Source of the DNA: a virus
Lineage: Duplodnaviria > Heunggongvirae > Uroviricota > Caudoviricetes
Strand: one strand, 5' to 3'
IMG/VR virus record: IMGVR_UViG_2740892230_000036
DNA: 17,571 nt
Shown: piece after piece, positions 2,268-13,471 of the stretch
Layout of the letters: every line of letters starts with the position of its first letter
Position numbering within the stretch: the stretch's first letter is position 1
Position numbers and translations under genes: made by a program
Notes under the pieces: generated by a model
Databases searched by the model: none
What the model saw: the letters and a program-made list of their open reading frames with translations, nothing else
What the model was told of the DNA's origin: nothing

Positions 2268-2543
2268 ATGAGCAAGCAAGTAACACTCATGACTGATGCG
2301 ATTCCTTATCAGGAGTTCGCAAAACTAATAGGAAAATCGACAGGAGCGGTTCGTCGGATGATCGATAAAGGAAAGCTGCCTGTAATTGATATGACCGATC
2401 CACAATCAGCTTCAGGTCGTGCAGGTGAATATTGGGTATACCTTCCGGCATGGAATAACGGACTAAAACTGGCTTATGAAAGCCGCCCTAAAGAGATTCG
2501 TGACGGCTGGTTGATGTGGTTAGGTCTCGGTGAACCACGTTAA
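2268..2543 (+). CDS. cox: Cox (excisionase / Pc repressor), 91 aa
   Basis: 91-aa ORF, SD GGAGGA 6 nt upstream, first gene of the rightward operon divergent from C; matches P2 Cox position and length. Confidence 0.9.
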   Translation: MSKQVTLMTDAIPYQEFAKLIGKSTGAVRRMIDKGKLPVIDMTDPQSASGRAGEYWVYLPAWNNGLKLAYESRPKEIRDGWLMWLGLGEPR

Positions 2544-2553
2544 GGAGAACCGT

Positions 2554-2724
2554 ATGAATGAGCCTCGTTGTATTGCTCAGTTACTGCGTAACGAAAGCCC
2601 CAGGGCGATTGACTTCAACATCACCCACGGTAAGGGGCGTAAGGGAATCATTATCCGCACCAAAAAACAGAGTCCGTTAAAAAAGGCTCTGACCTTTCTG
2701 AAAAGCCGGAGGGTCTGGAAATGA
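2554..2724 (+). CDS. P2 orf78-like small protein (56 aa)
   Basis: ORF track 2530-2724; ATG at 2554 is preferred because it has an AAGGAG SD 6 nt upstream. Stop overlaps the B start. Confidence 0.7.
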   Translation: MNEPRCIAQLLRNESPRAIDFNITHGKGRKGIIIRTKKQSPLKKALTFLKSRRVWK

Positions 2725-3221
2725 CAGTGATGACGCTTAATCTCGTCGAAAAACAGCCAGCAGCTATGCGCCGGATAATTGGTAAGCATCTTGCCGTCCC
2801 TCGCTGGCAGGAGACATGCGATTATTATAATCAGATGATGGAACGCGAACGGCTAACGGTTTGCTTCCATGCGCAGTTAAAACAGCGTCACGCAACGATG
2901 CGTTTTGAAGAAATGAATGATGTCGAACGTGAACGACTGGTATGTGCAATTGATGAATTGCGTGGGGCATTCTCAAAACGCCGTCAGGTTGGCGCAAGTG
3001 AGTATGCATATATTAGTTTTTTAACAGTCAGTCAGCGTCGTACTTTATTTATGCATGCCGGATTGACTGAAAAAGAATTCAACCAGCCATACTGGCGAAT
3101 TAATGAAGAATCATGTTACTGGCGTGATGCTTTATTCCGTGCATTACGTGAATTATTCAGCCTGTTTGAGTATGCACCGACAATTCTGACGTCGGTAAAA
3201 CCAGAGCAATATCTGCATTAA
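2721..3221 (+). CDS. B: Replication protein B (helicase-loader-like), 166 aa
   Basis: 166-aa ORF in the P2 B position and of the P2 B length; ATGA overlap with the orf78 stop. Confidence 0.88.
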   Translation: MTVMTLNLVEKQPAAMRRIIGKHLAVPRWQETCDYYNQMMERERLTVCFHAQLKQRHATMRFEEMNDVERERLVCAIDELRGAFSKRRQVGASEYAYISFLTVSQRRTLFMHAGLTEKEFNQPYWRINEESCYWRDALFRALRELFSLFEYAPTILTSVKPEQYLH

Positions 3222-3284
3222 GTAATTAACCAGAGTTTTTAACGCACTTAATTGTGCGGGGCTTCTTTTTGCCTGGAGAAAGTC

Positions 3285-3509
3285 ATGCATACAGTTTCTG
3301 AAAATCAGTGCGGTAAATACGCATTACTGCTGCAACAGGCCAGAACCGAAGCACAGGCCGACGCAGCGACGCGCTTTTCTTCTCATCTTGACGCCATGAT
3401 TCGCCACATCACAAAGGCGGAGTTATCCCGCGTGGAGATAGTCGAGCTGCTCAGTCAGGAGTCGGAAAAATTTCACAATATCGGATTGTCTCGCGGGGAG
3501 GTGCTTTGA
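3285..3509 (+). CDS. P2 orf80-like hypothetical protein (74 aa)
   Basis: ORF track 3252-3509; ATG at 3285 preferred (GGAGAAAG SD upstream). Conserved position and length. Confidence 0.7.
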
Positions 3510-3811
3510 TGTCCTGTTCTCGTTCAGTTGTATTACTGAATAACGCCTTAAAAATCGCCGTTATGAAAAATGGCGATTTATCTCTTATTCAACTTGGTCT
3601 TGATAAAGAAAAACGCGAAATAACTGAGTCAGTTATCGCGATTTATCAGAACGAATTAAATCTCCTGTCTGATGTGGTCAATTTACTTGTTAAACGCGCT
3701 GTATTTCACAAGCAAATCTCCTCCGTGGATGAACTGACGAAATTAACGACAGAAATTGCCAGCTATTGCGCTGATGAATTTAAAAAACTTAACGACAAAA
3801 GGAGCTGGTAA
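3509..3811 (+). CDS. P2 orf81-like hypothetical protein (100 aa)
   Basis: ATG at 3509 overlaps the orf80 stop (TGATG); GGGAGG SD upstream. Confidence 0.75.
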   Translation: MSCSRSVVLLNNALKIAVMKNGDLSLIQLGLDKEKREITESVIAIYQNELNLLSDVVNLLVKRAVFHKQISSVDELTKLTTEIASYCADEFKKLNDKRSW

Positions 3812-4035
3812 TGCCGGACAACGTAGATTTTATTCAGGAACAACAGGCTGAATTACTGGAGCGCCAGATTAACGCGGCAAGGGTAAAGCATTGCGGTGTT
3901 TCTGCGCTGGTTTGCGAAGAGTGTGACGCGCCAATACCTGCTGCCCGTCGTGCGGCTTATCCGTCAGCCACGCGTTGTGTTTCCTGCCAGTCAGTCTTTG
4001 AAGCAAAAAACAAACATTACCGGAGAACGGCATGA
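3811..4035 (+). CDS. P2 orf82-like, TraR/DksA-type C4 zinc-finger protein (74 aa)
   Basis: CEEC … ~18 aa … CVSC spacing typical of DksA/TraR zinc fingers; ATG overlaps the orf81 stop. Confidence 0.8.
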   Translation: MPDNVDFIQEQQAELLERQINAARVKHCGVSALVCEECDAPIPAARRAAYPSATRCVSCQSVFEAKNKHYRRTA

Positions 4036-4307
4036 GTATTCGTATTGAAATTGGCGAACGTTATGTCGTTACCAGTGACAGCTTTCAGTTTATTCTCCAC
4101 GAGAAAAAGAGAGCTGAAAGCGGTAAAAACGCCGGTCAGGAATGGTTGGCGGTGGTTGGTTATTACCCGAAATTAAGCCAGCTCGTTTCCGGCCTGATGC
4201 ATCACGATATTCTGACCGGAAGCGCAAAGTCTTTTGCTGATTTAAACGCGCAGGTTGAGCAACTCAGCAAGCGTTGTTCAGAGGCTTTTGGCTCATATGG
4301 CCGTTAA
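4032..4307 (+). CDS. P2 orf83-like hypothetical protein (91 aa)
   Basis: 91-aa ORF, start overlaps the orf82 stop, stop overlaps the A start region. Confidence 0.75.
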   Translation: MSIRIEIGERYVVTSDSFQFILHEKKRAESGKNAGQEWLAVVGYYPKLSQLVSGLMHHDILTGSAKSFADLNAQVEQLSKRCSEAFGSYGR

Positions 4308-6582
4308 AGCCTCCGGGCGTTTTGTCCCTCCGTCAGCATTTGCCGCAGGCACCGGTGAGACGTTTACCGGTGCTTATGCATGGAACGCGCCACGCGAGGC
4401 CGTCGGGCGCGAAAGACCCCTTACACGTGACGAGATGCGTCAGGTGCAAGGTGTTTTATCCACGATTAATCGCCTGCCTTACTTTTTGCGCTCGCTGTTT
4501 ACTTCACGCTATGACTACATCCGGCGCAATAAAAGCCCGGTGCACGGGTTTTATTTCCTCACATCCACTTTTCAGCGCCGTTTATGGCCGCGTATTGAGC
4601 GCGTGAATCAGCGCCATGAAATGAACACCGACGCGTCGTTGCTGTTTCTGGCAGAGCGTGACCATTATGCGCGTCTGCCGGGGATGAATGACAAGGAGCT
4701 GAAAAAGTTTGCCGCCCGTATCTCATCGCAGCTTTTCATGATGTATGAGGAACTTTGCGATGCATGGGTTGATGCACATGGCGAGAAAGAATCGCTGTTT
4801 ACAGATGAGGCGCAGGCGCATCTGTATGGTCATGTTGCTGGCGCTGCACGTGCTTTCAATATTTCCCCTCTCTACTGGAAAAAATACCGTAAAGGACAGA
4901 TGACCACGAGGCAGGCATATTCTGCCATTGCCCGCCTGTTTAACGATGAGTGGTGGATTAGTCAGCTTAAAGGCCAGCGTATGCGCTGGCATGAGGCGTT
5001 ACTGATTGCTGTCGGGGAGGTCAATAAAGACCGTTCACCTTATGCCAGTAAACATGCCATTCGTGATGTGCGTGCGCGCCGCCAGGCAAATCTGGAATTT
5101 CTTAAATCGTGTGACCTTGAAAACAGGGAAACCGGCGAGCGCATCGACCTTATCAGTAAGGTGATGGGCAGTATTTCTAATCCTGAAATTCGCCGGATGG
5201 AGCTGATGAACACCATTGCCGGTATTGAGCGTTACGCCGCCTCAGAGGGTGATGTGGGGATGTTTATCACGCTTACCGCGCCGTCAAAGTATCACCCGAC
5301 ACGTCAGGTTGGAAAAGGCGAAAATAAAACCGTCCAGCTTAATCACGGCTGGAATGATGAGGCATTTAATCCAAAGGATGCGCAGCGTTATCTCTGCCGT
5401 ATCTGGAGCCTGATGCGCACGGCATTCAAGGATAATGATTTACAGGTCTACGGTTTGCGAGTCGTCGAGCCACACCACGACGGAACGCCGCACTGGCATA
5501 TGATGCTTTTTTGTAATCCACGCCAGCGTAACCAGATTATCGAAATCATGCGTCGCTATGCGCTCAAAGAGGATGGCGACGAAAGAGGAGCCGCGCGAAA
5601 CCGTTTTCAGGCAAAACACCTTAACCGGGGCGGTGCTGCGGGATATATCGCGAAATACATTTCAAAAAATATCGACGGCTATGCACTGGATGGTCAGCTC
5701 GATAACGATACCGGCAGACCGCTGAAAGATACTGCGGCGGCTGTTACCGCATGGGCGTCAACGTGGCGCATCCCGCAATTTAAAACGGTTGGCCTGCCGA
5801 CAATGGGAGCTTACCGTGAGCTACGTAAATTGCCTCGCGGCGTCAGCATTGCTGATGAATTTGACGAACGCGTGGAGGCTGCACGCGCCGCCGCAGACAG
5901 TGGCGATTTTGCGTTGTATATCAGCGCGCAGGGCGGGGCAAATGTCCCGCGCGATTGTCAGACTGTCAGGGTCGCCCGTAGCCCGTCGGATGAAGTTAAC
6001 GAGTACGAGGAAGAAGTCGAGAGAGTGGTCGGCATTTACGCGCCGCATCTCGGCGCGCGTCATATTCATATCACCAGAACGACGGACTGGCGCATCGTGC
6101 CGAAAGTTCCGGTCGTTGAGCCTTTGACTTTAAAAAGCGGCATCGCCGCGCCTCGGAGTCCTGTCAATAACTGTGGAAAGCTCTCCGGTGGTGATACTTC
6201 GTTACCGGTTCCCACACCTTCTGAACATGCCGCAGCCGTGCTTAATCTGGTTGATGACGGTGTTATCGAATGGAATGAGCCAGAGGTCGTGAGGGCGCTC
6301 AGAGGTGCATTAAAACACGGACTGAGAACACCAAATCGTCAGCAGAGAAACGGAAGCCTGTTAAAACCACATGAAATAGCGCCATCGGCCAGACTGACCC
6401 GGTCGGAACGAACGCAAATTACCCGTATCCGCGTTGACCTTGCTCAGAACGGTATCAGGCCGCAGCGATGGGAGATTGAGGCGCTGGCGCGTGGGGCAAC
6501 CGTAAATTATGACGGGAAAAAATTCACGTATCCGGTCGCTGATGAGTGGCCGGGATTCTCAACAGTAATGGAGTGGACATGA
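4297..6582 (+). CDS. A: Rolling-circle replication initiator A (HUH endonuclease), 761 aa
   Basis: ORF track 4255-6582; in-frame ATG at 4297 gives 761 aa, the P2 A length. HUH-type motif (…GTPHWHMMLF…) and paired active-site tyrosines (…GYIAKYISKN…). Confidence 0.92.
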   Translation: MAVKASGRFVPPSAFAAGTGETFTGAYAWNAPREAVGRERPLTRDEMRQVQGVLSTINRLPYFLRSLFTSRYDYIRRNKSPVHGFYFLTSTFQRRLWPRIERVNQRHEMNTDASLLFLAERDHYARLPGMNDKELKKFAARISSQLFMMYEELCDAWVDAHGEKESLFTDEAQAHLYGHVAGAARAFNISPLYWKKYRKGQMTTRQAYSAIARLFNDEWWISQLKGQRMRWHEALLIAVGEVNKDRSPYASKHAIRDVRARRQANLEFLKSCDLENRETGERIDLISKVMGSISNPEIRRMELMNTIAGIERYAASEGDVGMFITLTAPSKYHPTRQVGKGENKTVQLNHGWNDEAFNPKDAQRYLCRIWSLMRTAFKDNDLQVYGLRVVEPHHDGTPHWHMMLFCNPRQRNQIIEIMRRYALKEDGDERGAARNRFQAKHLNRGGAAGYIAKYISKNIDGYALDGQLDNDTGRPLKDTAAAVTAWASTWRIPQFKTVGLPTMGAYRELRKLPRGVSIADEFDERVEAARAAADSGDFALYISAQGGANVPRDCQTVRVARSPSDEVNEYEEEVERVVGIYAPHLGARHIHITRTTDWRIVPKVPVVEPLTLKSGIAAPRSPVNNCGKLSGGDTSLPVPTPSEHAAAVLNLVDDGVIEWNEPEVVRALRGALKHGLRTPNRQQRNGSLLKPHEIAPSARLTRSERTQITRIRVDLAQNGIRPQRWEIEALARGATVNYDGKKFTYPVADEWPGFSTVMEWT
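6148..6167 (+). other. Candidate P2 ori / A-protein nick region inside the A gene
   Basis: gcgcctcggagtcctgtcaa lies in the 3' quarter of A, where the P2 origin is known to reside. The exact nick-site sequence is from memory and unverified. Confidence 0.35.
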
Positions 6583-7034
6583 TGGCAAAAATTCACGAGG
6601 TAAAGCTGCACGCAAAATATTTCGACCTTGTGCTGGAAGGAAAGAAACGCGCAGAGTTTAGGAAAAATGACCGTAATTATGAGCACGGGGACACGTTGAT
6701 TTTGCATGAATGGGTGCAGGGTGTGTATACGGGGCGAAAGGTTGAAGCCCGGATAACAGATGTTACTGACCTGTCAGATTGGCTGGAAGATTATGTCTTG
6801 CTAAGTATTGAGCTGCTTAATACAGGCGCATATGAGATTGTGAACTGGAAAGAACTTAGTGAGCGTGGTCTGGTATTCAGAATTAATCATGAAATTATGC
6901 ATCAGCTCGGCCTTGCTGTTATGTATGAACCAGAGACGGGGATGTCTGGCGGGGCAATGGTTGCCACGGATGGAGCATGGAACTATTCAGATGAACAGAT
7001 GGAGCGTGCACCGCAAAACGGGTGGCTTGGATAA
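6579..7034 (+). CDS. P2 orf91-like protein with ASCH/PUA-like (DUF3850-type) fold, ~151 aa
   Basis: ATG at 6579 overlaps the A stop; motif …KYFDLVLEGKKRAEFRKNDRNYEHGDTLILHEW… is typical of ASCH-like phage proteins. Start could be 6582. Confidence 0.75.
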   Translation: MMAKIHEVKLHAKYFDLVLEGKKRAEFRKNDRNYEHGDTLILHEWVQGVYTGRKVEARITDVTDLSDWLEDYVLLSIELLNTGAYEIVNWKELSERGLVFRINHEIMHQLGLAVMYEPETGMSGGAMVATDGAWNYSDEQMERAPQNGWLG

Positions 7035-7240
7035 TGCACAGAATACCAGGCGAGATACCGCACCATAAAACTAAAAATATCAAGCTGATGGCCATTGTTC
7101 ACCGTCTACAGCAGATTATGGTCAACGAAAATCTGACGCCCGATGAGCTAGTCGGGTGTGCCGAAATAGTCCGGGATAATTACGTATGGCTTAGCTATAT
7201 CGGTCAGTCCAGCGCTGCATCGCCACCACGCAGACGATAG
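7034..7240 (+). CDS. Hypothetical small protein (68 aa) at the hotspot boundary
   Basis: ATG overlaps the orf91 stop (TAATG); backbone-like composition; no recognisable domain. Alternative GTG start at 7022. Confidence 0.5.
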   Translation: MHRIPGEIPHHKTKNIKLMAIVHRLQQIMVNENLTPDELVGCAEIVRDNYVWLSYIGQSSAASPPRRR

Positions 7241-7429
7241 AGAACGCAGCCAGCTCAGGATTGGCGGGGGATAGAATAACGAGCATAGTGATGCGATTAG
7301 ACAAACAGACTGACTGGTACACTTAGGATGGTTATAGTGGTTTCTAAGTGCTTTAGCGATACATCTGGTGGACTGTTTTACCAACCTCAGAGTTAGCTGA
7401 ATTTTTAACAAAATACCATTTTGATAGAT

Positions 7430-7548: not shown

Positions 7549-7785
7549 ATGATGAATATATTTGAACGTATTATAGGTAAAGCTGCCATTGAAAAGGAAA
7601 GAGAACTGGCGAGGAGGCTTGAAGCATCTGGAACAAACACTGTTGAGGTGGTAGGTCGAGGCGCGATTATCACGTCTAAAGAAGACTTGGCAAGCTCAGA
7701 TACAGTAAAATTGATGAAAATTAAAGCAAGAAGAATAGTTTCTGAGCAGGTAAAGCAAGAAGAAAAAATGGCTAAAGGGAATTAA
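7549..7785 (+). CDS. Cargo gene 1: small soluble charged protein (78 aa), unknown function
   Basis: SD GTGGAGG 4-7 nt before ATG 7549/7552; AT-rich codon usage unlike the P2 backbone; stop 2 nt before the next gene's ATG. No domain recognised. Confidence 0.75.
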   Translation: MMNIFERIIGKAAIEKERELARRLEASGTNTVEVVGRGAIITSKEDLASSDTVKLMKIKARRIVSEQVKQEEKMAKGN

Positions 7786-7787
7786 TA

Positions 7788-8549
7788 ATGTTTGCTTTAT
7801 TAATTATTCCATTACTTGTGAGTGGTTATATTGTATTAACCACTCATCCTTATCATTTCTATAGATTACACCGTTATGATGGGCAGTTGTTATATATGAA
7901 GTCAGCCGCCTTTGGTCTGTGGTGTTTTATATGGACATTGATTATAGCTTACTTAATAAAATGGATATGTCCGAGCTTCCATCCTGTCACGATGGTTCGG
8001 GAACAATTAGATCTCAAACTTAGTGATAATGGTACTGAAAGAATCATAGGATGGATGATTTTACTTTCATGTGGATCGATATTTTTGGCTTGGATATGGA
8101 GTGCCGGTGCTAGATATTTGGTTATATATAGAGCTAAAATTATAAATTATATCCAAGGGGTAAAGGCTGCCAATATTGATTATGAGAATCTTGTCATGCT
8201 AAGGATGAGGCAAGAGCTTATTAATGATAATCCAATGGATGAAATATTTTTTGATTCGTTAGTTGATAGACGTTCAATACTTATTACGTTGCAAAATAAA
8301 AAGACATATGTAGGAATTGTTAACGCATTAGGTGAGCCTAACGAGAAAGAAGGACCTAACCAGTATGTTTCAATCTATCCTATTATCTCTGGGTATAGAG
8401 ATAAGGATTCATTGAAAGTAATCTTGGTGAATGAATATAGAGAACTTGAGGATGCTGATACTAGTATCATCTTTCCACTAAAAGAAATTTCGCAAGTTTC
8501 TTGGTTTGATATGGATATTCATAAAATAGTTGAAAATAATAAGGTGTAG
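7788..8549 (+). CDS. Cargo gene 2: membrane protein with 3 N-terminal TM helices plus ~145-aa C-terminal soluble domain (253 aa), unknown function
   Basis: Hydrophobic stretches FALLIIPLLVSGYIVLTT, AAFGLWCFIWTLIIAYLIKWI and IIGWMILLSCGSIFLAWIWSAGA, followed by a hydrophilic domain. Operonic with the 78-aa gene. Confidence 0.85.
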   Translation: MFALLIIPLLVSGYIVLTTHPYHFYRLHRYDGQLLYMKSAAFGLWCFIWTLIIAYLIKWICPSFHPVTMVREQLDLKLSDNGTERIIGWMILLSCGSIFLAWIWSAGARYLVIYRAKIINYIQGVKAANIDYENLVMLRMRQELINDNPMDEIFFDSLVDRRSILITLQNKKTYVGIVNALGEPNEKEGPNQYVSIYPIISGYRDKDSLKVILVNEYRELEDADTSIIFPLKEISQVSWFDMDIHKIVENNKV

Positions 8550-8552
8550 TAA

Positions 8553-8577
8553 ATGGTCACCTATAAAAGGTGACCAT
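8553..8577. terminator. Bidirectional intrinsic-terminator-like hairpin between the convergent cargo operons
   Basis: Perfect 9-bp stem atggtcacc / ggtgaccat with loop tataaaa, 4 nt after the plus-strand stop (8549) and 6 nt before the minus-strand stop (8583-8585). T-rich tract ttattttt follows on the plus strand; A/T-rich on the other side. Confidence 0.5.
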
Positions 8578-8582
8578 AATGC

Positions 8583-10847
8583 TTATTTTTGACGAATCCT
8601 GATTTTTGGTTGTTCACGAACAACAATATCAGTTTCTTTCCAACCAAGATTATTTATTTCAACCTCGGCTTCGTTGTAGACTGTAGTAGAATTGGCAAGA
8701 GATCTTAACGTAATAGCCAATACAGCACGTTGAGGTGAAGATAGAGGCTCTTGCTCTGCTCGTCTCTGAACATCAAGTTTAAGTCTCCATTGCTCCCCAT
8801 TTATACCTTGCGGAAATTGTTTTCTATAAACTTTGACTGGAGACCATTTGAAGCCATTTTCTATCAGTACCTTTTCAAATAATTCACTCTTTTCTTTTAT
8901 TTGTGGAATTTTTCCGCTATGTATCCATTTAGCGTTAACTGGATCATAAGTGTAAGTCCCGAATGACACATCCACATTAGAACGGCAATATTCAGATGGG
9001 TAGTCATAATCAAGCGGTGGAGAATAAACGAGTGTCATAATAATTTCACCTGTGAATTTTCCATCCTCAGTACGTAATGACTGTGGTATTACAAATGGCG
9101 TTCTACTGAATTCAATACCTTCTCGGGTATCTATTTCAAATAGAAATGTAATCTCATTTTTATTGCAACCAATAATATCATTTATATGATCGCTTGGGCG
9201 TCCAAATCCTTGATAATTAAACGCATAATGCTCCGTTTTGGCTGGTGAGTTTTTTAACGCAGAATGAATTAATAGTGCCTTGATACGTTCAGGCGATGGT
9301 GAAATAGAACCATTAACATCTAGTTCATGCCACAGTGATGCCGCTAAACTTGAGATTAACGGTGCTGATAAACTTGTGCCAATACTTTCGCAAAGAGCAT
9401 TGTCCTCGCCAATAGCTATGATTCCGGTATGTTCACAGTTTAATTTACTGTCACAATTACCTCCAAAGTGATTTATCTCTGGTTTGGGTATAAAGGCTGG
9501 GCCGGGACCTCTTCTAGAAAAAGATGAAGGTTCAAATCTTTTGACCACAGAGTCAGACGATTCTAAATGGGCAACTGAGCCAACAGTTAATGAACGAACA
9601 GAATCTGCGGGGGCTGATATTCTGTCATGCCCACCTAATTCTTGAGGAGGCCAGGTTCGTTGAGGATCATAAATGTAGTTGCCGGATGCTACGACGAAAA
9701 GACAATCATGCTCATCATGAAGTGCATTTAAAAAATGCCCCAATTCAGAGAAGCTGTCTTCAGAACATGGGGATTGACAACCTAATGACAGGTTCCATAC
9801 ACGTACTTCTGGATAGGTGGTCACAGCCTCTCGGATAGCTTTCATTAATTGTGGCAATTTGAGCGTACCATCTTTGGGAAAGGCTGCAACATCAACAATT
9901 TCAGCTTGGCATTGAGGAAAACCAGCATAGTTATTCAACCATCTTCCATTAATTGCTAAACTTGCAACCATGTTCCCATGAGAATAGTCGTGTTCTCCTT
10001 TTACTAAATCTAAACTATCCCAAATCCATGGCCTAAGTATGTTGTTATTGGGATCGACTCCGCTATCTATAATTCCGAGTAGTGGATAATGTTTATCCTC
10101 TTGAGGTAAGGGAAAATCATCTAGGTCTAGAGTTTCAGCAGGAATATATTGCGATACTGTATGAGTAAGACCAAATGTTGGCATAGGTTCTAATTTTCGT
10201 ATGCCAATAAAACTTGCCAGTTGGGCGATGTTATCATTCCCTTTTACTTCATATATACTCAAATCTGAACTGATATCATACTTTTTGGGTTTTTGTATTC
10301 CTAGTTCATCTGCAAATTCCATTAATTCTTTGTCGATACTGCGGTTAGTTGTTCTATCTTTATGGTCAAAGAGTTTCAGAAGAAAACTATCTGATTTATT
10401 TTTATCTATAACATCATGGTTAAGACTAAAAGGTTCGATCTTTTCAATTACAGCAATATGTACTGTCCCATTATGAGAATTAGTGCTATTTTCAATTTTT
10501 TTGCGAAGTTGTGCTAACCCTTTTTCAGTAACACTTATAAGTAATTCTCCAAAATTATCACTGCCTATTACGGGACATGTATTATCACCTAATAGGCTTG
10601 ATGGGCGATGTGACTTAGCAAGAGCTTTTTCATGAAGAGTAACTCTAGCCACCGCCGGTATATTGGGCCATTTTTTAAATGAGCTCTGGAAAAAATTTTT
10701 AACGTCATCGACTTCTTGTTTGAGTCTATTTTTTAGACTAGTTGTTACTGTTCGGATAGGTTGTTTCTTTCCGAAATTATATGTTTTTTCAGTAAAATCT
10801 TGAGGTGTCGCCTCAATTATTTTTATTGGTCTTTCTTTGTTACTCAT
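8583..10847 (-). CDS. Cargo gene 4: subtilisin-like serine protease (peptidase S8), 754 aa, with uncharacterised N- and C-terminal extensions; IetS-like
   Basis: Catalytic motifs in canonical order: Asp (…LLGIIDSGVD…, ~D261), His (…DYSHGNMVASLA…, ~H290), oxyanion Asn (…VVASGNY…), Ser (…IGTSLSAPL…, ~S492; codon at 9372-9374). Start ATG overlaps the ATPase stop (ATGA). Confidence 0.88.
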   Translation of the reverse strand: MSNKERPIKIIEATPQDFTEKTYNFGKKQPIRTVTTSLKNRLKQEVDDVKNFFQSSFKKWPNIPAVARVTLHEKALAKSHRPSSLLGDNTCPVIGSDNFGELLISVTEKGLAQLRKKIENSTNSHNGTVHIAVIEKIEPFSLNHDVIDKNKSDSFLLKLFDHKDRTTNRSIDKELMEFADELGIQKPKKYDISSDLSIYEVKGNDNIAQLASFIGIRKLEPMPTFGLTHTVSQYIPAETLDLDDFPLPQEDKHYPLLGIIDSGVDPNNNILRPWIWDSLDLVKGEHDYSHGNMVASLAINGRWLNNYAGFPQCQAEIVDVAAFPKDGTLKLPQLMKAIREAVTTYPEVRVWNLSLGCQSPCSEDSFSELGHFLNALHDEHDCLFVVASGNYIYDPQRTWPPQELGGHDRISAPADSVRSLTVGSVAHLESSDSVVKRFEPSSFSRRGPGPAFIPKPEINHFGGNCDSKLNCEHTGIIAIGEDNALCESIGTSLSAPLISSLAASLWHELDVNGSISPSPERIKALLIHSALKNSPAKTEHYAFNYQGFGRPSDHINDIIGCNKNEITFLFEIDTREGIEFSRTPFVIPQSLRTEDGKFTGEIIMTLVYSPPLDYDYPSEYCRSNVDVSFGTYTYDPVNAKWIHSGKIPQIKEKSELFEKVLIENGFKWSPVKVYRKQFPQGINGEQWRLKLDVQRRAEQEPLSSPQRAVLAITLRSLANSTTVYNEAEVEINNLGWKETDIVVREQPKIRIRQK

Positions 10848-12007
10848 AATATCTCTCTATAGTTCTTAGTTAGCCTTGACACTTTAGCATTTGAAAGCCC
10901 TAGTATTTTTGCTATCTTTCGTATTGTAAATCTTTTGGGATTGTATTCTCTGAGAGTGGTCACAATCTTTATAAGTAAATTATCTTCTTCATCAAATGTA
11001 ACTCCCTTCGCTTCTAAGATAGCCTCGACTAAAAATCGGGTATCGATTTGTTTATTATTGTAAACCAGAGCATGTCGCTCAGATCTTAAGCAGCATTGTT
11101 CTATAAATGAGCAGTTTAGCCCTGAGGATATTTCCGCAAGGTCATCAACAAAATCGTCATATGTGGCTTTTATGTTTGAATATTGTTCAAATAGTTGTTT
11201 TCTGACTTCAAAATCAGGCAATCCAATAGATATTCTATACTCAAAGCGCCTCCAAACTGCGCTATCTAGAAGATTTTCATGATTACTTGCAGCAATCAAT
11301 ATTGTTTCTTCAGGTAGATTGTCAATATTTTGCAATAAAGAAACCACCACCCTCTTCAGTTCACCTAACTCATGCTGATCATCTCTAGCCTTTGCTAGAG
11401 AATCTAGTTCATCTAGAAATAAAACACATGGTGCTTTACTTGCATACTCAAATAGCTGCCTGATATTTTTAGAAGTAGACCCCAGATATGATGAGACTAA
11501 GGAGTCACATCTTGCAGTAAGAAGCGGTAAATTTAGACAGGATGCAATATATTTTGATGTCAAGGTTTTACCACAACCTGGTGGCCCATATAAAATCATA
11601 GAGGATGTCACGCCAAGACCGGCATCCTTTAATTCTTTAGCTCGTTCAGTGAAAGTCAAAAATTCTTTAATTTTTTTCAGAGTGCTATCTTTCAACAATG
11701 GGAGTTGAATTTCAGAAGACGGTTGAGTTACGTCTGCTAAATCAAATTTAGTTTCTTTATCTACAGGTAATGTATCAAGACGTTCAAAAATAGGTGATGT
11801 ACTACGTGATACTTTCTGCAAGTTAAACGTGTTTTTATCTTGAATACTGCCTCTAATGGCTGAAGCAAGCTCAGGCAGCCCCATAGAATCATAGGAACGC
11901 GCGAGTTTCGAAGCCTGCCGAACAAAAGCAACTTTATCCCCTTTGAGTCCAAGACTGATAAGCTGCGAAAGTATCTCGTTTGTGGTCATTTGTGATACAA
12001 ACCTCAT
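10844..12007 (-). CDS. Cargo gene 3: AAA+ ATPase (387 aa) with C-terminal HTH-like tail; IetA-like
   Basis: Walker A …ILYGPPGCGKTL… (K~147), Walker B …CVLFLDELDSL…, sensor-1 …IAASN…, Arg-finger region …VWRRF…. C-terminus …IRKIAKILGLSNAKVSRLTKNY… resembles a helix-turn-helix. Alternative start at Met7 (11989). Confidence 0.88.
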   Translation of the reverse strand: MRFVSQMTTNEILSQLISLGLKGDKVAFVRQASKLARSYDSMGLPELASAIRGSIQDKNTFNLQKVSRSTSPIFERLDTLPVDKETKFDLADVTQPSSEIQLPLLKDSTLKKIKEFLTFTERAKELKDAGLGVTSSMILYGPPGCGKTLTSKYIASCLNLPLLTARCDSLVSSYLGSTSKNIRQLFEYASKAPCVLFLDELDSLAKARDDQHELGELKRVVVSLLQNIDNLPEETILIAASNHENLLDSAVWRRFEYRISIGLPDFEVRKQLFEQYSNIKATYDDFVDDLAEISSGLNCSFIEQCCLRSERHALVYNNKQIDTRFLVEAILEAKGVTFDEEDNLLIKIVTTLREYNPKRFTIRKIAKILGLSNAKVSRLTKNYREIL

Positions 12008-12248
12008 TAATCTGTTGTCTAAATGGCTTATAGGTGAGACAAATTTCTATTTTAATGTAGTTTATATGTATTTTGGTGAAACGAACACTATGTTTTACAT
12101 AAATCTTTCAGGTTTGGAGTTCTTGGAGGGCATAGAGTTGCATCAATTTGCATTCTAATTAGACTTTTTTATTGCTATCGTATTCTACATGTGACTAGGT
12201 CTGCCCTTCCTGATGCGTTTGCATTAAAACCGCCCCATGAAGCGGGCG

Positions 12249-12267
12249 GGCGAGGCGGGGAAAGCAC
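12249..12267. other. P2 cos (19-nt cohesive-end sequence)
   Basis: ggcgaggcggggaaagcac matches the P2 cohesive end as I recall it, and sits between the cargo and Q exactly where cos lies in an integrated P2. Confidence 0.8.
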
Positions 12268-12436: not shown

Positions 12437-13471
12437 TCAGTCGTTGTCAGTGTCCAGTGAGTAGTTTTTAAAGCGGATGACCTCCTGACCGAGCCAGCCG
12501 TTTATTTCCCGAATCCTGTCCTGTAACGGGATAAGCTCATTGCGGACAAAGACCTTTGCCACTTTCTCAATATCACCCAGCGCCCCGACGTTCTCCGGCT
12601 TGCCGCCCATCAACTGAAAGGGGATGCGGTGCGCGTCCAGCAGGTCTGCGGCACTGGCTTTTTTGATATTAAAAAAATCGTCCTTCGTCGCCACTTCACT
12701 GAGCGGGATAATTTTAATGCCGTCGGCTTTCCCTTGTGGGGCATAGAGAAACAGATTTTTAAAGTTGTTGCGGCCTTTCGACTTCACCATGTTTTCGCGA
12801 AGCATTTCGATATCGTTGCGATCCTGCACGGCATCGGTGACGTACATGATGTATCCGGCATGTGCGCCGTTTTCGTAATACTTGCGGCGGAACAGCGTGG
12901 CTGATTCATTCAGCCAGGCAGAGTTAAGGGCGCTGAGATATTCCGGCAGGCCGTACAGCTCCTGATTAATATCCGGCTCCAGCAGGTGAAACACGGAGCC
13001 GGGCGCGAAAGGTGTCGGCTCGTTGAAGGACGGCACCCACCAGTAAACATCCTCCTCCACGCCACGGCGGGTATATTTTGCCGGTGAGGTTTCCAGTCTG
13101 ATGACCTTACCGGTGGTGCTGTAACGCTTTTCCAGAAACGCATTACCGAACACCAGAAAATCCAGCACAAAGCGGCTGAAATCCTGCTGGGAAAGCCACG
13201 GGTGCGGGATAAACGTTGAAGCCAGAATATTACGTTTGACGTAAATCGGTGAACTGTGATACACGGCAGCACGCAGACTTTTTGCCAGACCGGTAAAGCT
13301 GACCGGCGGCTCATACCATCTGCCGTTACTGATGCATTCGACGTAATCCAGAATGTCACGGCGGTCGAGTACCGGCACCGGCTCACCAAAGGTGAATGCC
13401 TCCATTTTCGGGGCGCTGGCGGTCATTGTTTTTGCCGCAGGTCGCGGTGTTTTCCCTTTTTTCTTGCTCAT
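12437..13471 (-). CDS. Q: Portal protein Q, 344 aa
   Basis: 344-aa ORF of P2 Q length; sequence recognised as the P2 capsid portal; start overlaps the P stop. Confidence 0.93.
   Translation of the reverse strand: MSKKKGKTPRPAAKTMTASAPKMEAFTFGEPVPVLDRRDILDYVECISNGRWYEPPVSFTGLAKSLRAAVYHSSPIYVKRNILASTFIPHPWLSQQDFSRFVLDFLVFGNAFLEKRYSTTGKVIRLETSPAKYTRRGVEEDVYWWVPSFNEPTPFAPGSVFHLLEPDINQELYGLPEYLSALNSAWLNESATLFRRKYYENGAHAGYIMYVTDAVQDRNDIEMLRENMVKSKGRNNFKNLFLYAPQGKADGIKIIPLSEVATKDDFFNIKKASAADLLDAHRIPFQLMGGKPENVGALGDIEKVAKVFVRNELIPLQDRIREINGWLGQEVIRFKNYSLDTDND

Follow-up and report, generated by a model that had tools for sequence, protein, structure and literature searches.

Background and overview

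The IetAS system (Gao_Iet) was reportedly catalogued as an anti-phage system by Gao et al. in 2020, and is said to have been described as a toxin-antitoxin (TA) pair in 2009. Here we examine an ATPase-protease gene pair of this kind, ietA and ietS, in the IMG/VR virus record IMGVR_UViG_2740892230_000036. The window, by which we mean the whole stretch of 17,571 nucleotides that was analysed, is Escherichia coli chromosome with a P2-like prophage next to yegR/yegS. We read the pair as an intact IetAS system (Gao_Iet/IteAS/SgiAT-type) carried as cargo in the P2-like hotspot, where it most likely protects the lysogen by abortive infection (Abi); to this reading as a whole we assign a probability of roughly 0.85.

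Published work on the family combines genetics in several hosts. IetAS was first found as a plasmid-stabilising TA pair in which a serine protease is the toxin and an ATPase the antitoxin (PMC13069673, NAR 2026). For the ietHAS locus, ietA mutants could not be constructed, protease activity was required, and IetA behaves as an antitoxin (PMC13069673). The SgiAT pair of SGI1 gave a similar picture in E. coli, with a subtilase that is toxic within 30 min and is neutralised by the ATPase, and with no post-segregational killing (PSK) from its own promoter (PMC5006074). IetAS of Bacillus cereus confers an Abi phenotype, and toxicity appears on expression of a single SPbeta gene, yosG (bioRxiv 10.1101/2022.08.27.505566). 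Finally, IetAS of E. coli ECOR52 provided limited protection alone and synergy with Zorya II, and the same study considers whether a prophage location of ietAS might explain why it and Zorya II exclude one another (bioRxiv 10.1101/2022.08.21.504612). A first-pass annotation of this DNA, made by a model from the letters alone, had called the IetAS mechanism unresolved, in agreement with the literature up to 2026, in which we found no IetAS structure or biochemical mechanism and in which the mechanism is still called unknown.

An ATPase-subtilase pair of the IetAS family

The pair occupies two open reading frames (ORFs) on the minus strand, at 10844..12007 (387 aa) and 8583..10847 (754 aa), as the first-pass annotation had described them, including the overlap of the ietA stop with the ietS start in the sequence ATGA. 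We list the genes with the ietA start that we favour.

10844..11989, minus strand: ietA, the AAA+ ATPase and antitoxin partner; 381 aa when read from the conserved start, with the longest ORF extending to 12007
8583..10847, minus strand: ietS, cytoplasmic S8 subtilase (toxin/effector); 754 aa, with a start that overlaps the ietA stop

For the ATPase, the annotated ORF exists, but its upstream start (ATG at 12007) is probably unused and Met7 (ATG at 11989) is favoured. Comparison of related sequences makes Met7 almost certainly the true start of ietA: the RefSeq annotation of 381 aa agrees with it, and the Shine-Dalgarno (SD) sequence and start context GAGGTTTGTATCAC-ATGACC are kept across orthologous ietA loci, where the upstream ATG is absent. 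With this start the gene spans 10844-11989 and K147 becomes K141 in the 381-aa numbering; IetA residue numbers in this text follow the 387-aa ORF and are six too high for the 381-aa protein.

Both proteins matched the Pfam profiles proposed as a check on the pair, AAA (E=1.1e-31, IetA residues 137-262) and Peptidase_S8 (E=6.7e-24, IetS residues 255-549). The suggestion that the pair is IetAS-like was likewise borne out by the defence profiles of PADLOC, to which both proteins align over their full length: IetA to PDLC02196 (438 bits, E=9.1e-132, residues 9-382 of 387 against profile positions 3-370 of 374) and IetS to PDLC02197 (908 bits, E=1.1e-273, residues 1-747 of 754 against profile positions 1-747 of 749). 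Additionally, IteA (NF042959) and IteS (NF042956) were by far the top full-length matches in NCBIfam. The scores missed the equivalog cut-offs (387.2 bits against 510 for IteA, and 782.4 against 900 for IteS), which is why the RefSeq names do not go beyond 'AAA family ATPase' and 'S8 family peptidase'. Each protein is 34% identical to, and collinear over its full length with, its counterpart in the RefSeq-named iteA/iteS pair of E. coli CT282, and this level of identity, together with scores below the equivalog cut-offs, marks the pair as a divergent subfamily within the known IetAS family. Judged by these matches, there is very little doubt that the pair is IetAS, and the locus is an ordinary member of the known family.

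The organisation of the pair is shared widely. A scan of one genome from each species found 80 IetS loci, in numerous bacterial phyla as well as in methanogenic archaea. An IetA homologue lies directly upstream on the same strand in 76 of the 80, the other four being cut by a contig end. The ietA-ietS junctions of the family cluster at -4, -8 and -1 nt, so that translational coupling appears to be a family trait. Both genes of the pair are well conserved in coding sequence, with ratios of nonsynonymous to synonymous substitution rates (dN/dS) of 0.04-0.07 against orthologues.

Several individual relatives are of note. IetAS pairs occur in the methanogenic archaea Methanosarcinaceae and Methanimicrococcus, a 33%-identical IetAS adjoins a P2-like portal and terminase in Gallibacterium genomosp. 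1, and coliphage vB_EcoS-683R6 (ON470595.1) encodes a full-length IetS-like protein that is 32% identical.

Cargo of a P2-like defence hotspot

The prophage in the window carries, in order, an integrase, cox, the gpA replication endonuclease, a DUF3850/ASCH protein, the island, the portal gene Q, a terminase, a scaffold and a capsid. The gene for gpA lies at 4255-6582 (Pfam Phage_GPA, E=1.6e-123) and that for the portal at 12437-13471, and the flanks are P2-type in RefSeq. Between them, the pair resides in an island of distinct composition.

~7330..~12200: low-GC cargo island of 4.9 kb between gpA and cos/Q, with 29-46% GC against 50-59% in the flanks

The 19-nt cohesive-end (cos) sequence of P2, GGCGAGGCGGGGAAAGCAC, is present without mismatch at 12249-12267 on the plus strand, where none would be expected by chance. 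As this 19-mer lies ~50 bp past the right edge of the island, the cargo abuts cos.

The interval between gpA and gpQ is the main defence hotspot of P2-like phages (PMC13586616; PMC9122126). The island has the properties of hotspot cargo, being located between gpA and cos/Q, atypical in composition and variable in occupancy. Indeed, among 5426 complete E. coli genomes the flanking backbone was found in 2156 and the island in 12, at an identity of at least 99.4%. The ietS gene is 100% identical in six of these 12 island genomes, including the porcine enterotoxigenic E. coli (ETEC) strains ETEC4089 and ETEC1702, and a survey of ETEC with standard tools detected ietAS in 35 strains (PMC11267873). 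The main texts of the two hotspot papers, PMC9122126 (Rousset 2022) and PMC13586616, do not mention Iet; their supplementary tables were not searched. The finding is thus one of an already catalogued system, in a published hotspot, within a known prophage type, on an island present in public genomes and detectable with standard tools.

On the left side of the island we observed further small genes or ORFs. One of them (6546-7034, plus strand) encodes a protein of 162 aa in which DUF3850/ASCH and DUF7415 domains are recognised; it overlaps the end of gpA and lies on the conserved backbone side of the hotspot. At the left island edge, an 87-aa ORF (7148-7411, minus strand) matches PHROG 33524, of unknown function (E=2.8e-14); RefSeq instead has a putative 68-aa plus-strand gene there (7034-7240).

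The genomic setting bears on whether the pair serves defence at all. It could instead act mainly as an addiction module that stabilises the P2-like prophage by PSK, in which case protection against phages would be a side effect or lacking in this variant. The first description of the family was of a plasmid-stability TA on pTiC58, SgiAT stabilises SGI1, the pair studied here is carried on a mobile element, and the ECOR52 system alone gave limited defence (bioRxiv 10.1101/2022.08.21.504612), all of which would fit such a role. Yet the site is a P2 hotspot populated by defence systems (PMC13586616), family members have anti-phage activity and show phage-triggered toxicity (PMC13069673; bioRxiv 10.1101/2022.08.27.505566), and SgiAT shows no PSK from its own promoter (PMC5006074). 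We regard a mainly stabilising function as unlikely, and note that addiction and defence are not mutually exclusive roles for IetAS.

IetA is a classical-clade AAA+ ATPase with a probable helix-turn-helix tail

Two regions of IetA can be delimited, a AAA+ core and a short C-terminal tail.

11018..11635, minus strand: IetA AAA+ core, residues ~125-330 of the 387-aa ORF, from motif positions and family conservation
10847..10960, minus strand: IetA C-terminal tail, residues ~350-387, a probable helix-turn-helix (HTH), from sub-threshold HTH matches

The core contains Walker A (GPPGCGKT, 141-148, with K147), Walker B (LFLDELD, 196-202, with D199/E200), sensor-1 (IAASN, 238-242, with N242) and a WRRF motif (252-255) that supplies the Arg fingers R253/R254. 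These motifs, which the first-pass annotation had called intact, are where it placed them and are conserved across 79 IetA sequences extracted from related loci. The same 79-sequence comparison singled out AK.RDD..ELGELKRVVVSLLQNID as a stretch of unusual conservation.

The closest solved relatives of IetA in the PDB are the D2/D1 rings of VAT, p97/Cdc48, AFG2 and Rix7 (E~1e-50), and its next NCBIfam matches after IteA are PAN, FtsH and CdvC. These neighbours place IetA in the classical clade of AAA+ proteins, the clade of substrate-threading unfoldases. Consistent with this placement, IetA has the Arg pair of the second region of homology and, between its two Walker motifs, a pore loop-1 of the aromatic-hydrophobic-Gly type. 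The loop, SSYLGST (172-178, with S-S-Y-L-G at 172-176), is conserved in the 79 family sequences and aligns with the VAT pore loops SKYYGQS and SKWVGES. In a 2026 copy of the PDB we found no chain that was itself IetA-like or IetS-like, so that structural work on either protein would be new.

This placement raises the possibility that the pair is a two-component ATP-dependent protease, by analogy with PAN-20S, Cdc48-20S and FtsH, in which an IetA hexamer would recognise and unfold specific phage or host proteins and hand them to IetS, and IetS alone would be toxic only because it is then unregulated. Most members of the classical clade are protease partners or unfoldases, FtsH, PAN and Cdc48 are among the top matches of IetA, and IetA retains both its pore loop and its double Arg. 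The strict gene order and translational coupling suggest a stoichiometric complex, and both activities appear to be needed (PMC13069673). We return to this alternative below, where the anatomy of the protease bears on it.

Outside the core, the last ~35 residues of IetA gave consistent sub-threshold matches to more than 10 HTH families, the best scores being those of HTH_28 (E=0.002; 18.5 bits against a cut-off of 25) and HTH_23 (E=0.0035). This tail is kept in tblastn matches throughout the family, and the matches make it a probable HTH.

IetS is a cytoplasmic subtilase with two family-defining extensions

IetS consists of a subtilase domain between two extensions.

9201..10085, minus strand: IetS S8 catalytic domain, residues 255-549, from Pfam, catalytic motifs, conservation and the model
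10182..10661, minus strand: IetS N-terminal putative regulatory region, two predicted ferredoxin-like modules (residues ~63-140 and ~152-222)
8613..9170, minus strand: IetS C-terminal all-beta domain, residues ~560-745

The complete D/H/N/S catalytic set that had been claimed for the protease is present, with D261 in IIDSGV, H290 in HGNMV, N352 in NLSLG and S492 in GTSLSAP, and none of the four varies among 60 aligned homologues. The N-terminus, MSNKERPIKIIEATPQDF, is hydrophilic and does not form a signal peptide, which makes IetS a cytoplasmic enzyme. Most S8 proteases act outside the cell, and certain of them depend on dedicated chaperones. On that basis the pair might be seen as a subtilase for secretion or housekeeping that is served by its own AAA chaperone and has no link to conflict systems. 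This candidate was rejected: the missing signal peptide, the full-length match to defence-family profiles, the position in a low-GC island of a prophage hotspot and the toxin-antitoxin behaviour of relatives effectively refute it.

An AlphaFold2 model of IetS built with the 60 homologues reached a predicted local distance difference test (pLDDT) score of 90.4 and a predicted template modelling (pTM) score of 0.92. The second of the two N-terminal modules has a beta-alpha-beta-beta-alpha-beta topology in the model and lies immediately ahead of the catalytic domain. The first module contains ALAKSHRP, which outside the catalytic residues is the best-conserved motif in the family and in which A75, A77, K78, R81 and P82 are invariant. 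At the other end, the C-terminal ~190 residues carry invariant EYCRxN (619-624) and GFKWSP (665-670) motifs along with W687 and R696.

The first-pass annotation had recognised nothing in either extension, and this holds at the level of sequence: neither extension has a Pfam match or a significant PDB profile match, neither Pfam nor the PDB yields a sequence relative for the all-beta domain, and the best PDB match of IetS as a whole is only a generic subtilisin (E=5e-4). It appears not to hold for the predicted N-terminal fold, in which the modelled modules seem to resemble the built-in inhibitor/chaperone pro-peptides of subtilases. Both extensions are conserved in the 60 homologues, which marks them as family-defining domains and not as additions particular to this locus.

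These features of IetS also weigh on the two-component protease. Subtilases have an open cleft, are usually monomeric and do not form self-compartmentalised chambers, and we identified no docking motif or ring-forming feature in IetS. Moreover, in the published genetics IetA neutralises IetS and is not required for its toxicity (PMC13069673, PMC5006074). A division of labour in which IetA serves mainly to feed IetS is consequently an improbable one, and a TA relationship between the two proteins remains our preferred reading.

In summary, we describe here for the first time the pro-peptide-like modules and the all-beta C-terminal domain of IetS, and, for IetA, the pore loop, the probable HTH and the three upstream boxes presented below.

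Upstream boxes and a candidate operator

The region directly upstream of ietA contains a repeated element.

11992..12085, minus strand: upstream control region with three direct boxes TT(T/C)GTNTCAC, a candidate operator

The boxes lie at 11992, 12034 and 12076, at a spacing of exactly 42 bp, and the last one sits between the SD sequence and the ietA start codon. The pattern matches three times in the window against 0.35 expected, a count that is no unbiased test because the pattern was derived post hoc from these same sites. Six orthologous loci, with IetS identities as low as 58%, likewise have boxes of this core near -12, -54 and -96, and the sequence between the boxes diverges. Type II antitoxins commonly autoregulate their operons, and the presence of a probable HTH tail together with three putative operator boxes suggests that IetA may do so as well.

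A neighbouring two-gene cassette

The island also holds two plus-strand genes convergent with ietS, separated from it by a hairpin.

7549-7785, plus strand: cassette gene 1; 78 aa, charged, soluble
7788-8549, plus strand: cassette gene 2; 253 aa, putative membrane protein
8553..8577: hairpin with a 10-bp stem, lying where the ietS stop (8583) and the stop of the 253-aa gene (8549) converge; a likely bidirectional terminator

By eye, the sequence of the 253-aa protein has ~3 hydrophobic N-terminal segments. Neither protein matched Pfam, PADLOC or NCBIfam; they correspond to PHROGs 37504 and 3630, families of unknown function. The cassette is under strong purifying selection (dN/dS ~0.05).

The cassette stands beside IetAS in all ten loci (seven taxa) with an IetS identity of at least 58%, and in none of 77 more distant IetAS loci. 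The linked taxa are Escherichia, Citrobacter, two Enterobacter species, Scandinavium, Rahnella and Pectobacterium. All four genes have dN/dS values of 0.04-0.08 and similar, near-saturated synonymous divergence (dS), against blocks of ~90% identity. This matched divergence, the strict linkage among close relatives and the fact that the stops are only 33 nt apart and share a hairpin could point to an enterobacterial, P2-borne four-gene system, in which, for example, the membrane protein would be an effector activated by IetS.

However, all the IetAS loci linked to the cassette are set in P2-like backbones or in what is left of decayed ones, and vertical co-inheritance is enough to account for the linkage. 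Elsewhere IetAS is complete as two genes, and here the two units are transcribed convergently. Conversely, the cassette is often found with no IetAS nearby: in E. coli and Klebsiella it occurs next to integrases at the ends of prophages, and in Pseudoalteromonas it lies in a defence island. A four-gene system is therefore very unlikely in our view. From the shared P2 backbone and the standalone occurrence we read the cassette as an independent module co-inherited with IetAS in the same hotspot, and as a candidate for an unnamed defence or superinfection-exclusion module.

Beside the standalone cassette of Pseudoalteromonas sp. CR1 we observed another ATPase-plus-protease neighbourhood (2463-5528), in which a double-AAA protein of 670 aa is encoded with a serine protease of the SDH (ClpP-like) type on the opposite strand, adjoining an MmeI-type restriction enzyme.

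Proposed mechanism

For IetAS as a two-gene Abi system, we propose the following sequence of events. IetS would be made as a self-inhibited, zymogen-like cytoplasmic subtilase, an inhibition that we infer from the pro-peptide-like modules ahead of its intact tetrad. IetA, probably a hexameric unfoldase, would be made first and held at a fixed ratio to IetS through translational coupling. It would keep IetS harmless in an ATP-dependent manner; the antitoxin role has been demonstrated genetically in relatives, and restraint by an ATP-driven ring is our suggestion as to how it is exerted. IetA probably also represses the operon via its C-terminal HTH and the three phased boxes. During infection, a phage product might disable or divert IetA, or bind the non-catalytic domains of IetS. 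The freed protease would then degrade essential proteins, and growth would stop before phage release; trigger-induced toxicity and Abi have been demonstrated for the Bacillus homologue. To this logic, the release of a restrained protease, we give about even odds.

A bolder and rather doubtful extension is that IetA and IetS constitute a previously unrecognised class of ATP-dependent protease, in which a AAA+ ring acts on a zymogen-like cytoplasmic subtilase. If so, on a phage trigger the ring would either thread and remove the pro-peptide-like modules or feed substrates into the protease, and the HTH and three operator boxes would couple this activity to autoregulation.

Whichever scheme applies, the locus offers a compact native E. 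coli example of a system with a mechanism that is still open, and it comes with testable handles: the modules of IetS, including the one that bears ALAKSHRP, the pore loop and probable HTH tail of IetA, and the three-box candidate operator.

Comparison with known systems

Among described systems, IetAS (Gao_Iet) itself is the closest. It shares with the present locus an ATPase gene upstream of, and overlapping, a gene for an S8 subtilase of ~750 aa, with collinear proteins and the same motifs, and this P2-borne subfamily differs in sharing only 34% identity with the iteA/iteS pair that RefSeq names in E. coli. The IetA/IetS pair on Agrobacterium pTiC58 and the SgiA/SgiT pair on Salmonella Genomic Island 1 (SGI1) likewise combine a subtilase toxin with a AAA-ATPase antitoxin on a mobile carrier. 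They were studied for plasmid or island maintenance rather than phage defence, however, and their carriers are a plasmid and an integrative mobilizable element, compared with a P2-like prophage here. The IetA and IetS core is also common to ietHAS (Liu-DS4), whereas the SNF2 helicase of that system has no counterpart in this locus, where the pair is flanked only by the unrelated two-gene cassette and the P2 backbone.

Comparison of the N-terminal modules of IetS with the subtilases that carry pro-peptides (pro-subtilisin E, Tk-SP/Tk-subtilisin, PCSK9 and KP-43) shows where the enzyme departs from them: unlike those subtilases, IetS is cytoplasmic, has two N-terminal modules and an invariant ALAKSHRP, and is partnered with a AAA+ ATPase. 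Finally, the island resembles other P2 cargo between gpA and gpQ, such as old, tin and many others, in its insertion site, in being a low-GC replaceable cassette and in its variable occupant; the occupant in this case differs, and is IetAS accompanied by an unnamed two-gene cassette.

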